Source: Haliotis rufescens (Eukaryota). Taken from it: a DNA stretch of 64,000 nucleotides. A model generated the notes under the pieces. The model was given only the letters and a program-made list of their open reading frames with translations. It did no database searches and was not told where the DNA came from. The stretch lies in assembly GCF_023055435.1 (NCBI RefSeq), contig NW_025963802.1:3348001-3412000 (forward strand), written 5' to 3'. Both the position numbers and the translations under genes were made by a program. Shown here in pieces: positions 2,725 to 63,526 of the stretch. Every line of letters starts with the position of its first letter. The first letter of the stretch is position 1.

Positions 2725-2990
2725 GTCCCGTGAAGATCCGGGTTAGAATTGGTCTTCAGCAACCCGTGCTTGCCGTAAAAGGTGACTATGCTTGTCGGAT
2801 AGGAGGCGACTAACGGGATAGGGTGGTTGGGCTCGCTGAGTTGGTTGATGCATGTCATCGTTTCCCAATTGCGTGGATCGATGTTCATGATGTCAATCAC
2901 TGAATTGTCTGGTCCAAACTCGATTATATACAGACCGCCGTCATGTTCTTGGGTTATTGCTGAGTGCGGCTTTAAACAATAAACAAACAA
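2725..2990 (+). mobile_element. Short retroposon family C, full length
   Basis: cccgtgaagatccgggttagaattggtcttcagcaaccc head, (aaac)n tail, TSD acatcttctt on both sides. Confidence 0.9.
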
Positions 2991-3564
2991 ACATCTTCTT
3001 ATCAAACTATTGATAATATACAGCCAACCTACAAGTTGTAAGTGAATTCCTTTTAATGAATGCCGCAGGTCCGTCCATGGAGCCCTGGACGTACAAAGTT
3101 AATTCAGTGGGAATAGATATTCTGGAAATATATCATACGTTATGCTCTAAGTATGTGTTCTCCCATGCACTGATCTCATAAACCATCCCCTTCCTTTATC
3201 TGCTCCATCAACGGATGGTATATCCTGTCTTGTCTCAACTTTCCACTTATCTGCACAAACTCCGTACACAACACGGAATCAAACTTTGTAAACCTTCATT
3301 AACTTCAAGACAAAACGCACCCAGACCGAAATCATACAAGTAGGATCAAAAGTTGTTACTTCCGCAACCGAAACCTCGCGAGAGTTCATTAACGGCGCAC
3401 AATGTCCCTGCAACCGCACTCTTCAAAGAGTTTAGGGGGTGTAGTGAAGTTCACTACATGACTAGCACATGTGTTTTGTCGAGAGCAGTATGTTATATGT
3501 AAGAATACACAGGAGTCTTCACTGACAGTTGTAGCGGTCGGAATGTGGACGACTAGTACATATA

Positions 3565-9754: not shown

Positions 9755-9897
9755 ACGCCACACTGAACCACACAATCCAGTGACTGACATCATAAGTATC
9801 GATCTACGCAACTGAAATACGATAACATGCACAAACCACTCGATCCCGTTAGTCGCCTTTACGACAAACATGGGTTGTTGAAGACCAATTCTAACCA
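9677..9897 (-). mobile_element. Deleted family C copy whose tail runs into (GTT)n/(GT)n microsatellites
   Basis: cgatcccgttagtcgcc...gaagaccaattctaacc adjacent to (gt)n at 9714-9750. Confidence 0.7.
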
Positions 9898-10392
9898 AGA
9901 AACTGTATTAACAAAACACGCGATGGACATGTTAGCGGCATAAACATAGATGTACGTCTAGCAGCTGCATAGATTTAACACTTTACAAACATGTCAAAAT
10001 CGTGAAGGTATCTCGTATAGAGTGATACCCACTGCTGATATAACTCGGTAATAAGGCTAACCCTTTGAAATTAACTTATACGATGTGTTCAAACGCTGCG
10101 TTATTTGATCTCTGGTGTGTTGATGGGCGTGTTGATTCAGCATGACAAAATCCCTTAGATGTGTAGATAAAGACCCAGGTAACTGTTTAACTGTTTCAAA
10201 TAGATCTTCACATCTCATTAACGTCTGGTCAGGAATACTAACTGCATGTTTGAAATAATCCCCTAGGTAGTTAAGCCGGGGGCAAAAGGCTACACAGGGA
10301 GATTGAACTGTACTGGTCGCTGTCCGTGAATAATCGAGTTGGAATTATTAATGAGCAGACCACCTATAGAGACCTTGAAGTTGTATATGTGT

Positions 10393-10491
10393 AGAAAGTG
10401 GGCTTCACACATTGTTCCCATGTCGGGAATCGAACCCGGGTCTTCGGCGTGACGAGCGAACGCTTTAACCACTAGGCTACCCGACCGCCCC
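10393..10491 (-). mobile_element. SINE family A, 5' half
   Basis: gggaatcgaacccgggtcttcggcgtgacgagcgaacgctttaaccactaggctacccgaccgcccc. Confidence 0.85.
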
Positions 10492-15291: not shown

Positions 15292-16219
15292 TGCGTTGAG
15301 TGACAAGGTGATAAAAGTCTACAAGAGTGTTGGTATCAGCAGTTGTCTGTACACAGATATAACACGACCTCTGTTATTATACACGTCTTCTGAAGGAACA
15401 CTCCGCCCGGACACACATGACTACAATGCAAGTCGTTGTGATGTGACTAATATTGCAAAACACCCAGTCTCAGTTTCATCTTTAAGCATGCGTCGTCGAA
15501 CAAGTTGTAATAGAGATATGTTTCTACATAGCACATACATTCAAACAGCAAGCTTAATGTCTTGTGATATGGCGCGTTACCCATACTCTTACATTTACAC
15601 GATTGTGTGAAGAACATGATTTGTCTTAATCGGTACAGTTCCCACTGAAATAGTTCAGATTAACGATTAACGACAGGGGGGATTGGAGGAATAATCCAAT
15701 AATGATTGTATGTAAAAGTTAACAGTTATCTTCCGGTTTGGGGGAGTCCGTTTTAGCGAGGTGTCACTGTATCATATAAGAAAAGAGAGATAACATTATT
15801 TGTTATTTGATAAATTACCCATCGCATAATGTGTATGATGTAAAAGGATATTGCACCACAAGTGAACGATATAAGTGAACTGGAACGAAGGTGGTTTTTT
15901 GTACGGCTAGTGGAGGCCAATATGCCAAAATAAACGAGGATAAACAATGGATGGCAGCAGAGAACATACAGCGGGAATTTGGCAAATTATTTGAAAATAC
16001 AGGGGTTAATTCAAGTAACAGCTAAACATCTGTAAACAGTGGATATTCCTATCCTTAAAAGTTTAAGATTTTGTCATTTATCTACATCTTTAATACATAC
16101 AGGAAAGTTTCATCCTTAAAAAAGTTCCGGTGTTTAAGGATGGCCACGGTAGCCTTCTTTGCAATTCTTCACAATCTGTATCTCAGTATCAGGACAATAT
16201 ACAACTCACGATAAAAACT

Positions 16220-16368
16220 NNNNNNNNNNNNNNNNNNNNNNNNNNNNNNNNNNNNNNNNNNNNNNNNNNNNNNNNNNNNNNNNNNNNNNNNNNNNNNNNN
16301 NNNNNNNNNNNNNNNNNNNNNNNNNNNNNNNNNNNNNNNNNNNNNNNNNNNNNNNNNNNNNNNNNNNN
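16220..16368. other. Assembly gap (N run)
   Basis: Run of n. Confidence 1.
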
Positions 16369-16709
16369 TGCCCGGTCCAGTGTTACCGTGGTTTTTAGTA
16401 CGTGTTACCCCCTCATCAAACACACACGCCGCCTGCTGGTCACGTGCAACATCAATGCAGGTACCTCGTTATTAGACGCGTGTATATGTGCTGGAGTGGG
16501 TTGAAGATCTCTGGCAGTGCTGCTTCTGTTGTGGAATAAATGGGAAGCACATATGGATGATTGGAAGAATGTTCAGGTTGGCATCAGTTGATGAAAAAAA
16601 CATCAAAGATTCTCAGACACAGCATCAGGAGCTGTAAATATGTCATTGGCATTGCGATATTTGTGCTCCTTATAGAATCTGTGTCAGTAAATCAGACTGC
16701 GAGAACAGT

Positions 16710-16780
16710 CATATTGAGCATATGCTATTGAACATAGGCTATTGAACATATGCTATTGAACATATGCTATTGAGCATACT
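16710..16780. repeat. 14-bp tandem repeat catatgctattgaa (about 5 copies)
   Basis: Directly visible. Confidence 0.85.
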
Positions 16781-16974
16781 GTTTTGATGGTATGGTGACG
16801 GTATGATGATTTATTGTTGAGTGATGGAGTAAAAGGTGTTTAAACGCAATGCCACCATTGTGTGACCTCGCCGTTCCATGGAAGCATTTTACATATCGTG
16901 CTACGGTAACAGGCAAATAATGTATACGATTAGGGGCATACTAGTATAACTGTTATTGTACAATTAAAATTGTC

Positions 16975-17692
16975 ATGCATCCACATGCCCCACCCCCATG
17001 CATCCACATGCCCCACCCCGTACATCCACATGCCCCACCCCATGCCCCACCACCATGTCCCACCCTCATACATCCACATGCCCCAACCCCATGCCCCACC
17101 CTCATGCATCCACATGCCCCACCCCATACATCCACATGCCCCACCCCCATGCCCCACCCTCATGCACCCACATGTCCCACCCCCACACATCCACGCCCCC
17201 ATATCCCCCACCCCCACATATCCACATCCCCACCCCCACCATCCACATCCCAACCACCACCCCAAAACATCCACATCCCTGCCCCCATTATCCACATCCC
17301 CCACCCCCACACATCCGCATCCCCGCCCCCGCCATCCACCACCACCACCATCCAGATCCCCGCCCCCACCATCCCCTACCCCAACACATCCACATCCCCG
17401 CCCCATCATCCACATCCCCCACCCCCTCCATCCAGATCCCAGCCCCCACATCCATACTCCTCACACATCCACATCATCGCCCCCACCATCCATATCCCCC
17501 ACGCCCACCATCCACATCCCCGCCCCTACATCCCCCACCCCCACACATCCACAATCTCCCCCCCCCCCCACCCCCCACCATCCACATCCCCCACCCCCAC
17601 CCATCCACATCATCGCGCCCACCCCCACATCCCCACCCCCACATCCCATACCCCGTCACATACACATCCCCGCCCCCCACACACCCGCATCC
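16975..17692. repeat. C/A-rich low-complexity repeat (catccacat + cccc runs)
   Basis: Extreme C skew on the + strand. Gives His/Pro ORFs in all three + frames. Confidence 0.9.
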
Positions 17693-17753
17693 TTTAGTAA
17701 ATGGTTTGGAGTCTGACATTCATAGCAATTTTTGTCTTAACTTTGAAAACACT

Positions 17754-18033
17754 CAATCAGGACCCAGGTGTTTGTCTGGGAACACGGCCACCTGTCTATA
17801 CACAACTACGGTACACTTTCGTACATCACAGTTTATATAGAAACCCAAGTTTTGTTCACAAATAAATCCTATCTCAGAATAGACACCACACATGTACTTG
17901 CTGAGCTGTACAACACTGAGTGGCTAAATTTAAAGATCTACTGCCCATGTCCCGAATCCTGACGTTTATTGACGAATGTATCCTGACATTTAAGAAATAC
18001 ACTTCCCCGACTTGGCTCCCTCCTTCTGACTCA
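17754..18033 (+). repeat. Unclassified dispersed repeat, second copy at 29279-29544 plus 29981-29993
   Basis: aatcaggacccaggtgtttgtctg..aacacggccacctgtctata...agaaacccaagtt...aatcctatctcagaat shared between both loci. Confidence 0.75.
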
Positions 18034-20834: not shown

Positions 20835-21079
20835 ATGTTTGTTTGTTTGTTGTTTAACGTTGTTTAATAGTCCAGCTATATGACTGCGGTCTGTAAATAA
20901 TCTAGTCTGGACCAGACACTCCAGTGATTGACACCACGAACATCGATCTATCCATGCAATTGGGATGCGACGACGTGAATCAACCAAGTCAGCGAGCCTG
21001 ACCACCTGATCCCGTTAGTCGCCTCTTACGTCAAACATGGATTGGTGAAGACCAATTCTAACCCGGATCTTCACTGGTA
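20835..21079 (-). mobile_element. Short retroposon family C (single-hairpin variant)
   Basis: gatcccgttagtcgcctcttacg...gaagaccaattctaacccggatcttcac with a (gttt)n tail. Confidence 0.85.
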
Positions 21080-29544: not shown

Positions 29545-29981
29545 TTGTTTTGTTTGATTGTTTTTTGTTTGTTTTTTGTTTAACGCTGCACTTAGCAATA
29601 TCCTAGTTTTATGACCGCGGTCTGTAAATAATCGTGTCTGGACCAGACAATCCAGTGTTTGAAATCATGAGCATCGATCTACGCATTTGGGATGAGATGA
29701 CATGCATCTCCCAAGTCAGCAAGAATGACCACCCGATCCCGTTAGTCGCCTCTTACGACAAGTATAGTCCGCGGTTTGTAAATAATCGTGTCTTGACCAG
29801 ACAATCCAGTGAATGACATCATGAGCATCGATCTACGCATTTGGGATGAGATGACATGCATCAACCAAGTCAGCAACAATGACCACCCGAGCCCGTTAGT
29901 CGCCTCTTACGACAAGCATAGTCGCCTTTTATGGCAAGGGTGGGTTTCTGAAGACCCTTCTACCCTGGATCTTCACGGGTC
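29545..29981 (-). mobile_element. Short retroposon family C with an internal ~150-bp tandem duplication
   Basis: gtaaataatcgtgtct...acgacaag appears twice. TSD ctccttct. Confidence 0.85.
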
Positions 29982-33294: not shown

Positions 33295-33477
33295 NNNNNN
33301 NNNNNNNNNNNNNNNNNNNNNNNNNNNNNNNNNNNNNNNNNNNNNNNNNNNNNNNNNNNNNNNNNNNNNNNNNNNNNNNNNNNNNNNNNNNNNNNNNNNN
33401 NNNNNNNNNNNNNNNNNNNNNNNNNNNNNNNNNNNNNNNNNNNNNNNNNNNNNNNNNNNNNNNNNNNNNNNNNNNNN
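33295..33477. other. Assembly gap (N run) preceded by a CA/CG microsatellite
   Basis: Run of n after cacgcacg...cacac. Confidence 1.
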
Positions 33478-37387: not shown

Positions 37388-38039
37388 TATTGATTAACAA
37401 GTATCCGGATTAACGAATAATGATGTAGTTTTCCTCCGGAATGCGGTGTGTCTGTATTAACTATGTTCCACAGTAAAATATCTTCAATGATGAAGGCACA
37501 TGCAGGTGAGGCTATTGGAATGGCAATCACCTATACAGGGGAGGCTACTAGAATGGCCTTGTCCTATACAGGGGAGGCTACCGGAATGTCAATGTCTTGT
37601 ACAGGTTGTACATCAGCGCCGTCGGATTCTCAATAATGACGTTGGAGTCCCTGCTTCTTCATCTTGAACTACTCACGCGGAGCTGATTTACAGATGGAGA
37701 CGATACTTAGATGTTGAATATGCGAAATGCCAAATGTATCTTCCATATCTGTGTTGAATTGGCCAACCCACACACACAGCTTTGACCACAACCCTCGTGA
37801 TGACGTGGGGGGTTTGCAGGTTTGTATCGCACGAGGTCGCCATGACTGGGCCCGAGTTGGTGTTTCTCAGACGCCATTGGAAAGACTGGTTTACGAATAC
37901 TTCACCCTGTTTATCCTCTCAATTATCCATAAATACCAAGGTATGGACGCCATCATGCCTTACCGCTCCGTGTGTTGCGGCATCTGATAGACGCCCACTG
38001 CATAACGCTACACCCCATAAGCGTTTAATTCCTCACGAA

Positions 38040-38350
38040 CGCTACCTTTAATCGATAACGCTACCCCTATTTCAGCGTTAACCCATCTCCAACTACCCCA
38101 AATCGATAACGCTACCCCTATTTCAGCGTTAACCAATCATCAACTACCCCAAATCGATAACGCTACCCCTATTTCAGCGTTAACCCATCACCAACTACCC
38201 TAAATCGATAATGCTACCCCTATTTCAGCGGTAACCCATCATCAACTACCCCAACTACCCGATAAGGCTACCCATCGTTAACCCCCGACGAACGCTACTC
38301 CCACTCGATAACGCCACGCCCACAGGTACGTTACCTTTACTCGATAACCT
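38040..38350. repeat. 51-bp minisatellite (about 17-bp subunits) with degenerate flanks continuing to about 38780
   Basis: atcgataacgctacccctatttcagcgttaacccatcaccaactaccccaa. Confidence 0.85.
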
Positions 38351-40074
38351 CACACGAACCAACCACCTAGACATGCACAACTCTCTAAGGCAATAATTTT
38401 TAGCTTAAATCTTAAGTTCTAGATTATGTATATACTATGAACAAGTTGTCCATATAAGAGACTAAAGTACTGTCCACATATCTAGACTTGCCCATTGGGG
38501 GGGATAGAGTTACTAAACATCCAGGGACTTTTCTTTCCGTACATCCTTGTGGCAAAGCTAGCAACCACCACTCGGTAACGCTACAGTCATGTAACTGCTA
38601 CCCCTACTCGATAACGTTACCCGACACGAACGCTACCACGAATCGAAAACAGGACCCATCTCGAAAACGACACAGACAAACAATCCATACCTTACTCGAT
38701 AATGCTCCTTTCACTGAATATCGCTACCCCAGCACGAACTCTAACTCCTAACGAACGCTCCCCACACACGAACGCTACCCTACACAAGTGATATAAAAGT
38801 TTGCTCGAACCTCGGTAACCCGACCCTCGTTTATCCGGTCAAACTCACAACACCATGACAACGGAACGTAATAATTTCATTCAACGAATTGTTTAGTCGC
38901 GAGACGCGACACTCAGAAAATTTATAAAAAAAACTAATACAAACTGGCTGCGCATTTTTGCAATACACATCTTGTAGCTATTCACTGAGAAAATACGTAC
39001 TGAGGCCAATGCCACACCCCTAGACTGATATTCTAAAACAAATGGAAACAATGTGCCTCAAGAAAAGCAATACTGCCACGCCCACTTATCAATTGATGCA
39101 ACACTTCTACACCCATACATCAAAAGGCAAGGTGAGTTACTCCACACATTCTCCTTTAAAGGTTAACAAAATGGAATATAAAAATATGACACATGCTTAA
39201 AATTCCATCGACGGGGAGAGCACTAAACCGGTAGCTGTGTCGGTATATTTTCCTATGTAATGGTTCTCGCGTTATCCACTAGGGCTATTTGTACAATAAA
39301 CTCCACGAGGAGGAGCGACCGAAATAACGCATAGATTACATCTCAGCACATTTAGGAGACAAAAAAACATTTCATTGAGTCAAAGTAGAACGTTATCTGA
39401 GGATGTGAAAAAACACGCGCTGCTCCTGAGCCGAGCACCCACTGGCCGACCCCACGGAGCCAGCCCCTCTCCTACAGGTAATGAACCGTTAACCAGACGT
39501 TCCAATAGACCTGCCTTTAAGAAATCCGGGGGGAAATTCCCCAAATAAATGGAAATTCCTCTCGTTGGAATCGATATTATATGTTTCGATTATGGTTCGA
39601 TCCCGTGATTATTTTATCTTTAACATCAAGGCACAAACTCTACCGCAAGAATAGAGAGCTTGACATTTGTAGGACTTCGTTTGTATGACAAAATGGGCAT
39701 TAATACCCCCCGTTCTGTTCAGGGAGTATGGCTGCAGGGAAAACACCTTATTCGGCCAGACGAGAGGTGAAAAAAGGTAGAATGTTCATTTACAGCTGCG
39801 AGACACTGTGCTGTATATGTTCGGTGCCCCCAGTCGCGGTGATATTGCGGTCTGTTTATTTTGGGAAGCGACAATTGCTATAGCAGCTTGAATGTTAAAA
39901 AGGAGGAAGTGAGGTGGGAAGTAGTTGCATAAACAGCGAGAACCTGGGATTCCTGGGAAATAGTTGCATAAACAGCGAGAACACGCACTCTGGATCAGTC
40001 CAGACTGCCGTAGATTGCCACTGTTGTCTACACAATTGAGCAAACGAGCAAGGTTACCAAACTATGTCTACACT

Positions 40075-42240
40075 ATCGCCTTTCGAGCTATAGGTTACCA
40101 CGTTATTCTACAAAATCGTTTCCCGAACTATAGGTTGCCATTGTACTCCACACAACCGCCTCTCGAACTACAAGTTACCATTGTACTCCGAACAACCGCC
40201 TCTCGAACTATAGGTTACCATTGTACTCCACACAACCGCCTCTTGAACTATAGGTTACCATTGTGCTCCACACAACCGCCTCTCGAACTATAAGTTGCCA
40301 TTCTACTCCACACAACCGCCTCTCGAACTATAGGTTACCATTGTGCTCCACACAACCGCCTCTCGAACTATAGGTTACAATTGTACTCCACACAACCGCC
40401 TCTTGAACTATAGGTTACCATTGTGCTCCACACAACCGCCTCTCGAACTATAAGTTACCACTGTACTCCACACAACCGCCTCTCGAACTATAGGTTACCA
40501 TTGTATTCCACACAACCGCCTCTCGAACTATAGGTTACCATTGTACTCCACACAACCGCCACTCGAATTATAGGTTACCATTGTACTCCACACAACCGCC
40601 TCTCGAACTATAGGTTACCATTGTACTCCACACAACCGCCTCTCGAAGGATACGTTACCAATGTACTCCACAGAACCGCCTTTCGAACTATAAGTTACCA
40701 TTGTACTCCAAACAACCGTCTCTCGAACTATAGGTTACCATTGTATTCCACACAACCGCCTCTCGAATTATAGGTTACCATTGTACTCCACACAACTACC
40801 CCCGAACTATAGGTTATAATTGTACTCCACACAACCGCCTCTCGATCTATACGTTACGATTGTACTCCACACAACTACCCCCGAACTATAGGTTATTATT
40901 GTACTCCACACAACCGCCTCTCGAACTATAAGTTACCATTGTATTCCACACAACCGCCTCTCGAACTATAGGTTACCATTGTACTCCACACAACTACCCC
41001 CGAACTATAGGTTATTATTGTACTCCACACAACCGCCTCTCGATCTATACGTTACCACTGTACTCCACACAACTACCCCCGAACTATAGGTTATTATTGT
41101 ACTCCACACAACCGCCTCTCGAACTATAGGTTACCATTGTACTCCACACAACTACCCCCGAACTATAGGTTATTATTGTACTCCACAGAACCGCCTCTCG
41201 AACTATGAGTTACCATTGTATTCCACACAACCGGCTCTCGAACTATAGGTTACCAATGTACTCCACACAACCGCCTCTCGAACTATGAGTTACCATTGTA
41301 TTCCACACAACCGGCTCTCAAACTATAAGTTACCATTGTATTCCACACAACCGACCCCGAACTATAGGTTATTATCGTACTCCACCCAACTTCCTCTCGA
41401 ACTATACGTTACCATTGTAGTCCACACAACCGCCTCTCGAACTATAAGTTACCAATGTACTCCACACAACCGACTCTCGAACTATAAGTTACCATTGTAC
41501 TCCACACAACCGTCTCTCGAACTATACGTTACCATTGTACTCCAAACAACCGCCTCTTGAACTATAGGTTACCATTGTGCTCCACACAACCGCCTCTCGA
41601 ACTATAGGTTGCCATTGTACTCTACACAACCGTCTCTCGAACTATACGTTACCATTGTACTCCAAACAACCGCCTCTTGAACTATAGGTTACCATTGTGC
41701 TCCACACAACCGTCTCTCGAACTATACGTTACCATTGTACTCTAAACAACCGCCTCTTGAACTATAGGTTACCATTGTATTCCACACAATCGCCTCTCGA
41801 ACTATAAGTTACCATTGTACTCCACACAACCGCCTCTCGAACTATAAGTTACCATTGTACTCCACACAACCGCCTCTCGAACTATAAGTTACCATTGTAC
41901 TCAGCACAACCGCCTCTCGAACTATAAGTTACCATTGTACTCCACACAACCGCCTCTCGAACTAAAAGTTACCATTGCACTCCAAACAACCGCCTCTCGA
42001 ACTATAGGTTACCATTGCACTCCAAACAACCGCCTCTCGAACTATAGGTTACCATTGTACTCCACACAACCACCTCTCGAACCATAAGTTACCATTGTAC
42101 TCCACACAACCGCCTCTCGAACTATAAGTTACCATTGTACTCCAAACAACCGCCTCTCGAACTATAAGTTACCATTGTACTCCACACAACCGCCTCTCGA
42201 ACTATAAGTTACAATTGTACTCCACACAAGCGCCTCTAAA
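40075..42240. repeat. 40-bp satellite array (about 54 units)
   Basis: tccacacaaccgcctctcgaactataggttaccattgtac. Confidence 0.97.
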
Positions 42241-42469
42241 CAAAAGATTTTCACTGTACTTTACACAATCGCCTCCAAAATTATAGGTTACCATCGTATT
42301 CTACACAATCGTGTTTCCAGATATTGGTTACCGTCGTACTATATAGACTATGGCCTCTACAGGTTATTATCGTACTATATAACATATTGTGCTTAAAATA
42401 AATACATTACCATAGACAGTTGTGTCTAGAGGTGTAGGTTATTATTGTATTCAATCGATTGTTAAACAA

Positions 42470-43078
42470 CAGGTTACCAATATTTACTTCACAATCGCTT
42501 CTCAAACAGTAGGTTACTATTGTACTTTACACAATCGCTTCTCAAACAGTAGGTTTCCATTGTCCTTTACACAATCGTTTCTCAAACAGTAGGTTTTCAT
42601 TGTACTTTACACAATTGGTTCTCAAACAGTAGGTTACTATTGTACTTTACACAATCGCTTCTCAAACAGTAGGTTTCCATTGTACTTCACACAATCGGTT
42701 CTCAAACAGTAGGTTACTATTGTACTTTACACAATCGCTTCTCAAACAGGAGGTTACTATTGTACTTTACACAATCGCTTCTCAAACAGGAGGTTACTAT
42801 TGTACTTTACACAATCGCTTCTCAAACGGGAGGTAACTATTGTACTTTACACAATCGGTTCTCAAACAGTAGGTTTCCATTGTACTTTACACAATCGGTT
42901 CTCAAACAGGAGATTAGAATTGTACATTACACAATCGCTTCTCAAACAGGAGGTTACTATTGTACTTTACACAATCGCTTCTCAAACAGGAGGTTACTAT
43001 TGTACTTTACACAATCGGTTCTCAAACAGTAGGTTACTATTGTACATTACACAATCTCCTCTCGAGCTCTAGATTACC
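42470..43078. repeat. Related 40-bp satellite variant (about 15 units)
   Basis: tttacacaatcgcttctcaaacagtaggttactattgtac. Confidence 0.95.
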
Positions 43079-43839
43079 GCTTTATAGACAATCGTTTGTC
43101 GGGTATTAAAGGTTACTAAAGCACAACATACAACCGGCTCTCCAGCTCAAGCGTACCATTTGTATTCTAGCATTGTACATTGTACAAGTTACAACCTTCC
43201 AATGTCCACCAACATCATCCCGACCCAATCCCCGTAGTGCAGCACTGAAGATGTGCGTGGTTACACCAGTAACCCTCAAGCTTATAAGGAACTTCAAGTT
43301 TCGCCTTCGCAACAAGGAATTCTGGATAATTTCCCCAAATCTAACGATCTATGGCAGCAGATGTAAGGAATATTTCACTCCGGGAAGATGACTCACTTCT
43401 CTACTGGGGGTAATACCTTAGATACCAGACATCCGTCAGCCAATCAAATTGCACATATTGTTAAAGAGGAACTTAGACATACATTGTTATAGCTGTTTGA
43501 CTGAGCCTCAATGTTTGTTTGGATCGAGGAAGGGCTTGTTAATATATAATAAACTTGAACAGACTATAAAATGAACGTTTAAAGAAGACAACATACGATT
43601 TTCTTGTTTCAGAACAGAATGGCTGTGCAACGAAAACAGCGATGGACAGCGCTGGTCATGTCGTGGTCTCCCGTACAAGCTCACGAAGACTTCCCTCACT
43701 AAATATTTCACAATAACCTTGGGAAGTGATTTTAATTTTGCAATAATAGAGCAATAGAGAATTGGTCTCAGATTGAAAACCAGGAAATTCGGTGTGATGA
43801 GCGGACGCTTTCACCACTCGGCCACCAATATAGCATTAC

Positions 43840-43913
43840 CCCCGTGGGGAAGCGAACCCGGGTCTACGGGATGACGAGCGAACGCTTCAACCACTAGGCT
43901 ACCCTCCTGTCCC
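43840..43913 (-). mobile_element. SINE family A head fragment
   Basis: cgaacccgggtctacgggatgacgagcgaacgcttcaaccactaggctaccc. Confidence 0.7.
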
Positions 43914-45096
43914 GCAATAGTCCAGGGAGCACGTGAAGGCTACATACACATGTGTTAGGTATCGTGGAATTTCAATGTTTTTGCTTAACAGGCTCAGTCG
44001 GTATTAGGATTACTTACAACTTTACATCTGTGATGTCAGACAGCTGGTGAACTGTCATCAACACCATCTATTCAGATGAACCTGACAGCAGTCAGATACG
44101 TACGCCACCTATGGCGATAAGTGCCATCAATTAAAAAGGGGGAGATAAGCACGAAACATTCTCAAGAATCTGCGTTCGGATTAGATTAATTTGATGCCCT
44201 CGGGGATTCAATATTACCTTCAAATTTACGACGTGAATCATAACATTTATTGAAAGTAGTATATGTTTTTAAAAAAAAGAAGACATTTTTTAAAGATGTT
44301 TATGATATAGCTTCGTGAATGCCAGCCTCTTTATCGTGGTAGCCGACTTTCGATAAAGAGTAAAAAGATGTAGACTGGCCATATATAGCAACACGTGCAT
44401 ATGTACGAACATTCGTTCTGCACTACTTCGCGGGGTATGGAATGGGAAAACTTGCAATGCGGAATGCAGAAAGTCCGGGCCGTTGAAACAACGCCAGGTT
44501 GCGAGGTATCGCCCTCGCAACTAATTACACTGCTTTACACGTAGGCAACAGGAAACGGGCGGTAGGTATGGGCGACGGAATACCCCAGTAATTGTTGACT
44601 GCGGAAAAACTCATTTACTTATGGTAAATTGTGTCAACAGAGTCGTCGTGTATATTTAACCCGTTCTAGTAACTATTACAGGTTTAACATTCTTCGCTGC
44701 AGGACCAGATCGTGTGTTGCTGGTTACAAAGGATTTTACTCGGCGTAAATCTAATGGATTGTACTCTATTCTTATAAAACAGTTTTTGCTGTTGGCTTGT
44801 ACTGAGTGAATTTTATTTAATCTGTTAATATTTTTTTTAAACAAAAAAATTCATGTTTACTTTGAACATGATCTTTATCATTGCGAGTACAGTGTCGTAA
44901 TCATACTGTCTGTGTTATTAAAGACGACTTAATGGGTTTATACGGGGCATCAAGAACACATATCACATATATTTTGCAATTATAATCATCCAAACCACGC
45001 ACCTGTTTATATTTACAACCGAGGGACAGCTGTATTCTGCCCGCATCTCACTTACCGCCCCATAGCTGACATACCACGTGTTGGAGTCAGACCCCT

Positions 45097-46206: not shown

Positions 46207-46368
46207 GGGTGAGTGAGGTTTTACGCCGTTTTTTTTGCAATATTCCAGCAATATCACGGCGGGGGACACAAGAAATGGCCTTCACACATTGTACCCATGT
46301 CGGGAATCGAACCCGAGTCTTCGACGTGACGAACGAACGCTTTAACCACTAGGCTACCCGACCGCCCC
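46207..46368 (-). mobile_element. SINE family A, full length
   Basis: Reverse complement of the 49307 copy. TSD accagaaccagaa. Confidence 0.9.
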
Positions 46369-46628: not shown

Positions 46629-47013
46629 ACCGCCTCCGTGGTCTAGTGGTAGAGCGTCCGCCCGGAGAGCGGAAGGTCCGGGGTTCGATCCCCTGCCGCG
46701 TCATACCAAAAGACGTTAAAATATGGTACTTGTTGTTACCCTGTCTGGCGCTCGGCATTAAGGGGCTAAAACAAGGACTGGTCGGCTCGGAGTCAGTATA
46801 CTGTGTCTGAGTCGGGTATTCATGTAAAACTGCGGCATGGTATCTCAGTGAGCTAGCACTATAAATCGGCATCAGTCCGGGCTAGTACAAGCAGCCACAC
46901 AAACACACCCACGTACATGCACGTCGCTATATAAGTGCAATAATCTTGGACGCGACGTTAAACCCAATTTCACCTCACCTCACCTCACCTCACCTCACCT
47001 CACCTCACCTCAC
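46629..47013 (+). mobile_element. SINE family B, full-length reference copy with long (cacct)n tail
   Basis: A box tggtctagtgg, B box ggttcgatccc. TSD ctgatgaaa. Confidence 0.92.
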
Positions 47014-50322: not shown

Positions 50323-50583
50323 GAAGACCCGGGATAGAATAGGTCTTCAGCAACCAATGCTTGCCGTAAAAGGCGACTATCCTTGTCGTAAAAGGCGACT
50401 AACGGGATCGGGTGGTCAGGCTCGCTGACTTGGTTGATGCATGTCATTGGTCCCAATTGCGTGGAACGATGCGCATGATGTCAATCACTGGATTGTCTGG
50501 TCCAGACTCGATTATTTACAGACCGCCGTCATATAGCTGGAATATTGCTGAGTGCGGCGTTAGACAACAAACCAACCAACCAA
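50323..50583 (+). mobile_element. Short retroposon family C (double-hairpin variant)
   Basis: gaagacccgggatagaataggtcttcagcaacc...ttagacaacaaaccaacc. TSD acctcat. Confidence 0.9.
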
Positions 50584-58802: not shown

Positions 58803-58897
58803 GCCCGGATAGCTCAGTCGGTAGAGCATCAGACTTTTAAGCGGTCTGTGACATCAGAGTGATCTGAGGGTCCAGGGTTCGAGTCCCTGTTCGGGCG
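58803..58897 (+). tRNA. tRNA-Lys-TTT: tRNA-Lys(UUU) with a 22-nt intron at canonical position 37/38 (58840-58861)
   Basis: Removing 58840-58861 gives GCCCGGATAGCTCAGTCGGTAGAGCATCAGACTTTTAATCTGAGGGTCCAGGGTTCGAGTCCCTGTTCGGGCG, the conserved 73-nt animal tRNA-Lys(UUU) with intact stems. Confidence 0.95.
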
Positions 58898-63029: not shown

Positions 63030-63186
63030 TGAGTGAGTGAGTATGGTTCTACGCCGCTTTTAGCAATATTCCAGAAATATCACAACAGGGGACACCAGAA
63101 ATGGGCTTCACACATTGTACCCATGTCGGGAATCGAACCCGGGTCTTCCGTATGACAAGCGAACACTTTAACCACTAGGCTACCCG
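63030..63186 (-). mobile_element. SINE family A inserted into a decayed family C copy (about 62945-63265)
   Basis: TSD gattgatattatgag derives from family C sequence (ccagtgattgatat.atgag). Confidence 0.88.
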
Positions 63187-63526
63187 ATTGATATTATGAG
63201 AATATCCCACACTGTCGGAGTATGATGAAACCTGAAACCCTGATCTATTTAATCGCCTCGTACACCCAGCATAGGCTGCTACAGTATGTCCCGACAACAC
63301 CACAGTGACGGTTACCTCAAGCCATAAGTTGAAATAATGGAGTCTGACTCCACAATGTATCTGTACTCAAGTGCTAATGCTTACTCAATGATGTAACAAA
63401 AGTCAATATCTCTTCTTGTTTGACAATTCATTGCATGACATGATCCAAAATAACAAACAATATGAAATATTTCATTAACAACACAATTCTGGGAATTGGA
63501 GGCGCCATGATAACAACTGGGATGAG

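Follow-up and report, generated by a model that had tools for sequence, protein, structure and literature searches.

SINEs headed by a domain of 'Nimb-17 homology' have been described as LP-SINEs, and a promoter role was proposed for their 'LP' domain (Matetovici et al., 2016; PMC4758252). In the accessible portions of that paper the head is LINE-derived and about 70 nt long, is found in SINEs of Haliotis, Littorina, oysters and scallops as well as in the LINEs Nimb-17_LMi, I-3_DR and RTE-9_CPB, and is reported from molluscs and a fruit fly and from LINEs of locust, zebrafish and turtle (PMC4758252). The same portions hold no structure, virus link or ribozyme tandem, the word 'pseudoknot' is absent from the main text (PMC4758252), and the head goes unmentioned in the accessible part of PMC5786205. 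Our literature search, which was largely confined to openly accessible articles, found no follow-up on LP-SINE function and no account of the fold, of virus copies or of an HDV-like ribozyme in tandem with the head. Among the xrRNAs, Xrn1 halts at the base of P1 on those of plant viruses (PMC12397905) and one nucleotide before the first stem on coremin (PMC10520033), and xrRNAs in cellular RNAs have been named as still to be found (Vicens and Kieft, in the available part of PMC8374639).

Here, the head of a retroposon family, family C, was analysed in the window, that is, the whole stretch of 64,000 nt of Haliotis rufescens DNA, and followed into the host genome, viruses and metagenomes. What is new with respect to the above is a newly resolved pseudoknot, an unreported virus link and, among LINE copies in the genome, a natural experiment that speaks against both a ribozyme and a promoter.

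Family C and its LINE relatives

Family C, which the earlier note had picked out as a retroposon family with target-site duplications (TSDs), a consistent start and no tRNA head, proved to be real: a copy lies at 2725-2990 (+), and BLAST gave 21 pieces at about 18 places within the window, five of the pieces being weak fragments, with about 13 clear copies. It is a SINE of ~250-270 bp with a head of ~75 nt and 3' ends of (AAAC)n/(AACC)n. Alignment of the copies gave a 5' start as sharp as claimed, TSDs flanked 9 of 26 full copies as compared to 0 of 78 swapped-flank controls (5 of 25 copies in a stricter search for exact TSDs), and neither a tRNA nor an Rfam family was found on any family C head. 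The pattern of the small hairpin of the head, P4, occurs 8 times in the window against 0.05 expected, and a covariance model recognized 10 heads there. In the whole genome, the search gave at least 6,081 first-look candidates, and evenly chosen stretches adding up to 200 kb contained 20 heads recognized by the covariance model, which would correspond to roughly 100,000 heads genome-wide if the 200 kb are representative. The GAAGACC reading of the copy at 50323 was confirmed. The consensus quoted earlier does not fit the 2725 copy, in which the small hairpin has undergone a tandem duplication of 22 nt and both resulting units have decayed; among 19 body-anchored copies, two hairpin units are present in 10, one in 7 and none in 2. 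The copies and their parts are as follows.

2713-2722, + strand: left target-site duplication, an identical 10-mer lying at 2991-3000
2725-2990, + strand: full family C copy (LP-type SINE)
2820-2935, + strand: SINE body of the 2725 copy, without convincing match to the LINE 5'/3' UTRs examined
2936-2990, + strand: 3' tail of ~35-40 nt, Nimb-like, with the (AAAC)n repeat; match to LINE 3' ends, measured with copy L010
8799-8874, + strand: motif head of another copy, without duplication, 61.4 bits; training row of the model
21004-21079, - strand: motif head of another copy, 57.1 bits
50316-50413, + strand: motif head of another copy, with duplication, 56.0 bits
45505-45603, + strand: motif head of another copy, 49.4 bits
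15216-15291, - strand: motif head of another copy, 48.7 bits
29885-29981, - strand: motif head of another copy, 46.6 bits, then a second partial copy at 29564-29770
9838-9913, - strand: motif head, 5'-truncated, 31.0 bits
2041-2248, - strand: 5'-truncated copy that begins at the hairpin unit

The window further contains a tRNA gene at 58803-58897 (+), with 61.6 bits in Rfam and about 23 extra nt in the anticodon loop, which ARAGORN calls Leu(TAA) and whose alignment reads like Lys(UUU) with an intron. Weak tRNA matches of 29-35 bits at 46632-46703 (+), 63118-63189 (-), 10422-10480 (-) and 46292-46363 (-) are probably the heads of other, tRNA-derived SINE families. GC skew is strongly negative, down to -0.45, at 16001-18000 and 38001-44000, probably owing to C-rich simple repeats, and N stretches occupy 16220-16368 and 33295-33477.

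Comparison with the LP-SINEs showed that family C combines a LINE-homologous head, lack of a tRNA-derived head, variable TSDs and a 3' tandem repeat, that the same motif is present in the scallop and Pan_3 rows of the published supplement (PMC4758252) and that Hmi_LP, at 255 bp, has the size of family C (PMC4758252). Family C is likely the same as Hdi/Hmi_LP, although the hexamer that precedes the repeat in the accessible text of PMC4758252 is not obvious in family C. The earlier description of the head as an undescribed element therefore holds for its structure, which is new, and not for the sequence domain and the SINE group, which were published in 2016 (PMC4758252).

The LINE side was approached with a LINE ORF1 located behind the motif in L250, which as a query gave 150 scored matches in the host genome; 40 of these 150 loci, with long open frames and varied scores, were taken for study. 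With APE, RT and RNase H and a zinc-knuckle ORF1, these elements agree with the I/Nimb group. The motif lies 400-560 nt before ORF1 in 37 of the 40 Nimb-type loci and is lacking in three, which bears out the suggested origin of the head from a LINE 5' end. Identity between the family C head and the 5' UTRs of Nimb-type LINEs of the same genome amounts to 75-81% over about 60 nt, and that between its tail and LINE 3' ends to 78-88% over 21-36 nt (copy L010). Since the terminal repeat of family C differs from the LINE repeat and its body is unrelated to the LINE loci examined, the exact LINE partner would be a relative not yet found. The proposed bipartite LINE-5'/LINE-3' make-up is thus right as to the shared head and tail and falls short in the middle body, for which the loci examined gave no LINE match and which makes family C tripartite, not simply bipartite. 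Dense clusters of full-length LINEs were seen in the host genome (C445:31.1-32.1 Mb and C101:8.4-9.1 Mb), several copies apparently being inserted in the ORF2 of other LINEs.

Fold of the head RNA and the element start

The conserved pseudoknotted RNA that had been read from the window was supported by covariation across 19 families. Of the four helices drawn for it, two were mis-paired, namely a CCCGU/ACGGG closing helix and a GGGUU/AACCC pseudoknot, the strands of which pair the other way round. The covarying fold consists of a 5' H-type pseudoknot (S1, S2) followed by a two-part hairpin (P3, internal loop, P4), and its strands run in the order S1 (4-6 bp), one U, S2 5' strand (7 nt), S1 3' strand, loop 3, S2 3' strand, a short linker and P3/P4; loop 3 comprises 6-23 nt with AGAAU at its end. 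In the 2725 copy these parts are positioned as follows.

2725-2730, + strand: S1 5' strand and element start, from covariation and start position
2731, + strand: loop 1, a single U, invariant in 14/14 rows
2732-2738, + strand: S2 5' strand, from covariation
2739-2744, + strand: S1 3' strand, from covariation
2745-2750, + strand: loop 3 with conserved AGAAU, a conservation partly imposed by the search patterns
2751-2757, + strand: S2 3' strand, from covariation
2763-2767, + strand: P3 5' strand, pairing with 2813-2817
2772-2786, + strand: P4 copy 1, decayed, part of the 22-nt duplication
2794-2810, + strand: P4 copy 2, with a 2-nt insertion in the 2725 copy
2813-2817, + strand: P3 3' strand

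In shuffle tests on the 19 families, which ignore relatedness with some families being akin and in which S2 was picked for best pairing, 125 of 133 S2 cells were paired against 81 with shuffled partners, 82 of 95 S1 cells against 70, with G-C/C-G flips at two positions, and the P3 helix sum was 87 against 69 (P about 1e-4 in each case). The same test on the same families gave 49 versus 47 for the CCCGU/ACGGG closing helix (P 0.20) and 59 versus 57 for the GGGUU/AACCC pseudoknot (P 0.29), that is, no better than shuffled partners. Seven of 26 candidate rows (F6, F7, F9b, F10, F11, F15 and F16) had been left out of this test as degenerate, mis-parsed or redundant. On a 14-row alignment the revised pairs were 91% paired, with a covariation score of 0.40 versus 0.175 that was reached in 0 of 500 shuffles, whereas the pairs drawn earlier, for which the mapping onto the alignment is approximate, were 59% paired and were matched in 94 of 500 shuffles. 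A free-register test for the longest helix in 26 rows, superseded as too noisy with G/C-rich strands and with 5 rows mis-parsed, had placed the revised fold ahead in 19, tied in 3 and behind in 4. P4 never varies in the rows used, a constancy partly imposed by the search patterns, and is for this reason without covariation support; LINE copies found by protein have loop variants and nearly always keep the P4 stem. The 7-nt loop of P4 in intact copies has what we take to be a T-loop-like look. The folding energy of 2726-2823 is unremarkable (z -0.58, single copy), and support for the fold comes from comparison, not from energy. The pattern of pairing suggests selection on the head fold at the RNA level. 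The analogy with an HDV fold lacking P1 that had been drawn for the head was not supported, the covarying fold being an H-type pseudoknot plus a hairpin.

The start of the elements was measured with the loop-1 U as a ruler in F2 (n=45), F3 (n=16), F4 (n=11), LINE_B (n=22) and SINE C (n=39): at -6 the commonest base accounts for 64-95%, and at -7 for 33-43%, which is near random. F9 (n=8) was less clear in this count and the H row (n=5) continues into a ribozyme. The base at -6 is able to form the first S1 pair in LINE_B, F3 and SINE C. TSDs end 3-7 nt ahead of the loop-1 U, and scallop copies from the PMC4758252 supplement begin 3-5 nt upstream of this U. The start thus falls at the base of S1, 6 nt ahead of the pseudoknot junction, in five families, as read from DNA copies and not from mapped RNA ends. 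The first base is U in 21 of 22 LINE_B copies and G in 66% of SINE C. A start with U is unlike a typical transcription start.

Sister LINE subfamilies, viruses and metagenomes

In the host genome, the motif heads two sister Nimb-type LINE subfamilies, H and B, the 5' starts of which were counted with queries placed downstream of the motif in order to avoid bias. Subfamily H starts at G1 of an HDV-like ribozyme in 29 of 30 loci, the remaining one being truncated inside the motif, and none of the 30 starts at the motif edge. With the query from subfamily B, which has no ribozyme, 24 of 30 loci start at the motif (3 of these share flanks with another copy), and the other six comprise four truncated copies, one odd variant and one member of subfamily H. 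The protein-found set has the HDV-like ribozyme directly before the motif in 35 of 37 loci (34 start at G1, one is cut inside the ribozyme), while in the remaining two, one of which has a clean TSD, the motif itself is the start. In the upstream element of subfamily H, P1 has 7/7 bp with G-U as first pair, P2 7/7 and P3 3/3, GG follows P1 for L3/P1.1 and a C is present in J4/2; the score against RF02682 is 28.5 bits at a cut-off of 44. It appears to be a complete, minimal HDV-like ribozyme. A ribozyme of this kind, scoring below the Rfam cut-off and nearly lacking P4, makes up the 5' terminus of a young LINE family of Nimb type (L297:1273-1330 and some 90 further loci).

Because subfamily H keeps the upstream ribozyme and never starts at the motif edge, this edge is unlikely to be a self-cleavage or promoter site, and the suggestion in the earlier note of a self-cleaving ribozyme is disfavoured by the retention of the HDV-like ribozyme directly before the motif in 29 of 30 copies. 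Comparison of the starts in B and H therefore indicates that the motif alone can mark the element start and that there is no cut or initiation at this place when the ribozyme is present. Moreover, subfamily H keeps the fold, with a compensatory change in S2, and since 0 of 30 loci start there, a second function of the motif is indicated.

Some further observations were made in these loci. Five twister-P1-like repeats (L274-L278) score 42.7-45.3 bits at a cut-off of 67.2; the three viewed share both flanks, and the two scanned had no adjoining motif. Three small-RNA runs from a related organism yielded 69 reads, which is not enough to place 5' ends. In one run of a related organism, 40 antisense small-RNA reads share a single start over the LINE H motif (L337:1536, - strand); these may be copies of one molecule, or piRNA.

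Among virus records, the 18-nt hairpin pattern matched nine contigs of IMG/VR, seven of which also have the upstream part, with wholly different stems, and six of which are distinct. Five are distinct RNA viruses, namely L014 (RdRP_4), L018 (RdRP_3), L016 (nodavirus-type capsid), L012/L017 (Peptidase_A21 capsid) and L011, for which Pfam and PDB gave no match and for which the closest clusters in Atlas consist of RNA-virus proteins, RdRp families being present in several of them; the remaining contig, of 212,482 bp, belongs to a DNA virus and carries an NAD-dependent ligase. In each of the six viruses the motif follows a stop codon at a distance of 4-119 nt on the sense strand, and in the RNA viruses it lies 27-119 nt from the contig end, a location that by analogy is the usual position of xrRNAs. 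A covariance model trained on the 14 animal rows only scored the seven virus loci at 38-72 bits as compared to <28 bits for pattern-only chance matches, and on 72 further pattern-only virus loci it gave one weak partial match. Looser patterns revealed no further members in the virus data, and the phage records gave no match to the motif. One structured RNA being common to retrotransposons and several unrelated virus lineages, exchange at the RNA level is implied. Tandem pairs of the motif were observed in the 3' UTR of an RNA virus (L011, second copy cut off) and in a metagenome contig (L062:1393-1520).

A metagenome scan gave at least 122 matching stretches, a few samples dominating, among which at least about ten repeat families with flanks that differ per copy were seen, the hosts of which we infer to be animals. 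Together with the published elements (PMC4758252), these repeats bear out the earlier suggestion of similar motifs in other invertebrate retroelements, among which the motif is widespread. In one repeat family (L045, L079, L086, L096, L100 and L148) the motif is directly followed by a tRNA-like head with an A-box-like stretch (by eye), and a related arrangement is described from scallops (PMC4758252). Prokaryote genomes gave 18 matches, seven of them with the motif (L240, L244, L245, L246, L249, L250 and L251) and all seven in eukaryote-like DNA, and no genuine prokaryotic copy was found among the 18. Accordingly, the bacterial copies were rejected as animal DNA in MAGs or in a symbiont scaffold (microsatellites, contig ends, one LINE ORF1), due to contamination or mis-joins, and L241 and L242, inside bacterial genes and at <24 bits, as chance matches. 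In L249 the motif heads a short element that ends in (GAA)n and whose body we take to resemble RTE 5' sequence. A link of the head to RTE is also found in PMC4758252.

Readings of the head and comparison with known RNAs

From the comparisons made here, we propose, at about even confidence, that the head is likely a barrier to a host 5'-to-3' exoribonuclease that would trim read-through RNA to the base of the first stem and so define the 5' end exactly, no promoter within the element being needed. Following this, transcription from a host promoter would run through a copy, the transcript would be decapped or cut upstream, Xrn1/Xrn2 would degrade it up to the S1/S2 junction and be braced there, its channel holding about 6 nt of S1, and, in the last step, the protein of a Nimb-type LINE would copy the surviving RNA via the common 3' tail. 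A stop at this point in virus RNA would yield a short 3'-terminal fragment, and a host protein bound to the head may form part of the barrier. Such a barrier would account for the zero leader, the fixed 6-nt distance and the position in viruses, and also for subfamily H, because the RNA cleaved by its ribozyme would have a base-paired 5'-OH end. Xrn1 cannot take a base-paired 5'-OH end unless it is phosphorylated. The barrier does not explain well why subfamily H, in which it seems unused, keeps the fold, and the constancy of the hairpin sequence, which would befit a protein-binding site, far exceeds that of most xrRNA stems; the coremin xrRNA is sequence-conserved as well (PMC8374639, PMC10520033). 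The 3' strand of S1 and loop 3, closed by S2, would form a putative ring of about 14 nt in the shortest forms, and the rings of xrRNAs measure 15-16 nt (PMC8374639). The wider proposal, that of a new xrRNA class which would have passed among RNA viruses, a large DNA virus and LINE/SINE elements and would be the first in cellular genomes, with roughly 100,000 copies here, is one to which we give slightly less than an even chance.

The main rival to the barrier is an element that substitutes for a cap or poly(A) tail by binding a translation factor or the ribosome, aids the translation of uncapped LINE and virus RNA in the manner of a cap-independent translation enhancer and places SINE RNA close to newly made LINE protein. 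The bound factor would then block decay and only incidentally sharpen the 5' end. Such an element would explain the retention of the motif in subfamily H, where it is kept behind a ribozyme that leaves uncapped RNA, and it fits the presence of the motif in 3' UTRs of RNA viruses. The virus groups concerned are generally not polyadenylated. The hairpin and AGAAU are near-invariant from animals to viruses, which also speaks for such an element, although this invariance is partly imposed by the search patterns and protein-found LINE copies have loop variants. Moreover, ORF1 is separated from the motif by 9-17 AUGs in all six LINEs checked, so that the motif is not a simple launch site for scanning, and non-coding SINEs retain it at their exact start. 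On balance we regard this reading as unlikely.

Under self-cleavage, under RNase P-type cutting and likewise under a promoter, starts at the motif would be expected in subfamily H, and all three are disfavoured on this account. An unrecognized self-cleaving ribozyme, cutting just 5' of S1 and silenced by an abutting helix, would agree with 5' ends that are sharp to a single nucleotide at a fixed distance from a conserved core, the motif occupies the position of the ribozymes of other LINEs (PMC8256844), and UTRs of linear RNA viruses do contain ribozymes (PMC13725137). It is nevertheless improbable, as cleavage would strip subfamily H of the HDV-like ribozyme that is kept in 29/30 and 35/37 loci and would take the last 100-200 nt off RNA virus genomes, and the first S1 pair and the start of loop 3, beside the would-be site, vary freely. 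Nor does the motif match an Rfam ribozyme: scans of the window, the genome copies, the virus loci and the contaminated MAG loci placed no family on it, and in agreement with the earlier impression there was no twister, hammerhead, pistol or other Rfam ribozyme at gathering or at E up to 5-10. The idea of a rearranged pistol was dropped, such permutations being reported for hammerheads only in the accessible text of PMC10085705. An internal promoter that acts as DNA (the 'LINE promoter' of PMC4758252), with the RNA fold secondary, would suit a motif at the starts of both SINEs and LINEs, has a precedent in the dual promoter/ribozyme Pr77 of L1Tc (cited in PMC4758252) and could be reflected, by way of the cap, in the G that is first in 66% of SINE C. 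We give it a low probability, since RNA viruses, which have no DNA stage, carry the motif, the fold has compensatory pairs, subfamily H never starts at the motif and subfamily B starts with U. Very improbable is a tRNA-like substrate that a host endonuclease such as RNase P cuts at the base of S1: the cut at the first paired base, the about 12-13 bp of S1+S2 and the T-loop-like hairpin favour it, whereas the head received no tRNA call and the objections to self-cleavage apply here too, namely the ribozyme kept upstream in subfamily H and the cutting of virus genomes. RNase P substrates have stem lengths and a loop shape comparable to those of S1+S2 and the hairpin.

Comparison of the head with known systems, for which the published sources were available in part, shows resemblances to the class 3 xrRNAs of dianthoviruses, poleroviruses and ST9a (PMC12397905), in which an apical loop pairs with a 3' strand as in S2, the 5' end lies at the base of the first stem, as the element starts in DNA copies would suggest for the head, the location is a 3' UTR or intergenic region and the fold contains a T-loop (PMC12397905). 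In contrast to these, which have stacked P1-P2 and a T-loop within the loop (L2B; PMC12397905), the motif has a single short S1 and a loop made up only of the U and the S2 strand; it carries its T-loop-like loop on an extra downstream P3-P4 hairpin, is without Rfam or sequence match and occurs in animal retroposons and in invertebrate and environmental viruses. The class 1/2 xrRNAs of flaviviruses possess a three-way junction and two pseudoknots (PMC8374639), an arrangement that the motif lacks. With coremin (PMC10520033) it shares a small sequence-conserved hairpin found across unrelated RNA viruses, although coremin has no pseudoknot and another loop and spacer, elements with the motif start at the pseudoknot and not at the hairpin, and in a comparison by eye with the 20-nt hairpin-spacer sequence of coremin only a 3-bp stem is alike (PMC10520033). 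The HDV-like ribozymes at the 5' ends of LINEs (R2, L1Tc/ingi) likewise give read-through RNA an exact 5' end (PMC8256844), whereas the motif has neither an HDV-type P3/L3, for which there is no room, nor P1.1, and its strands are in another order. Should the head bind the translation machinery instead, animal viruses would possess in it a kind of cap-independent enhancer that is described as plant-specific in PMC12397905. If the barrier is true, these retroposons would be processed by host decay instead of by their own promoter or ribozyme, and the head would be a compact new stabilising module for uncapped RNA; as a new class of xrRNA it would add a further route to an exact 5' end, beside internal promoters and self-cleaving ribozymes.
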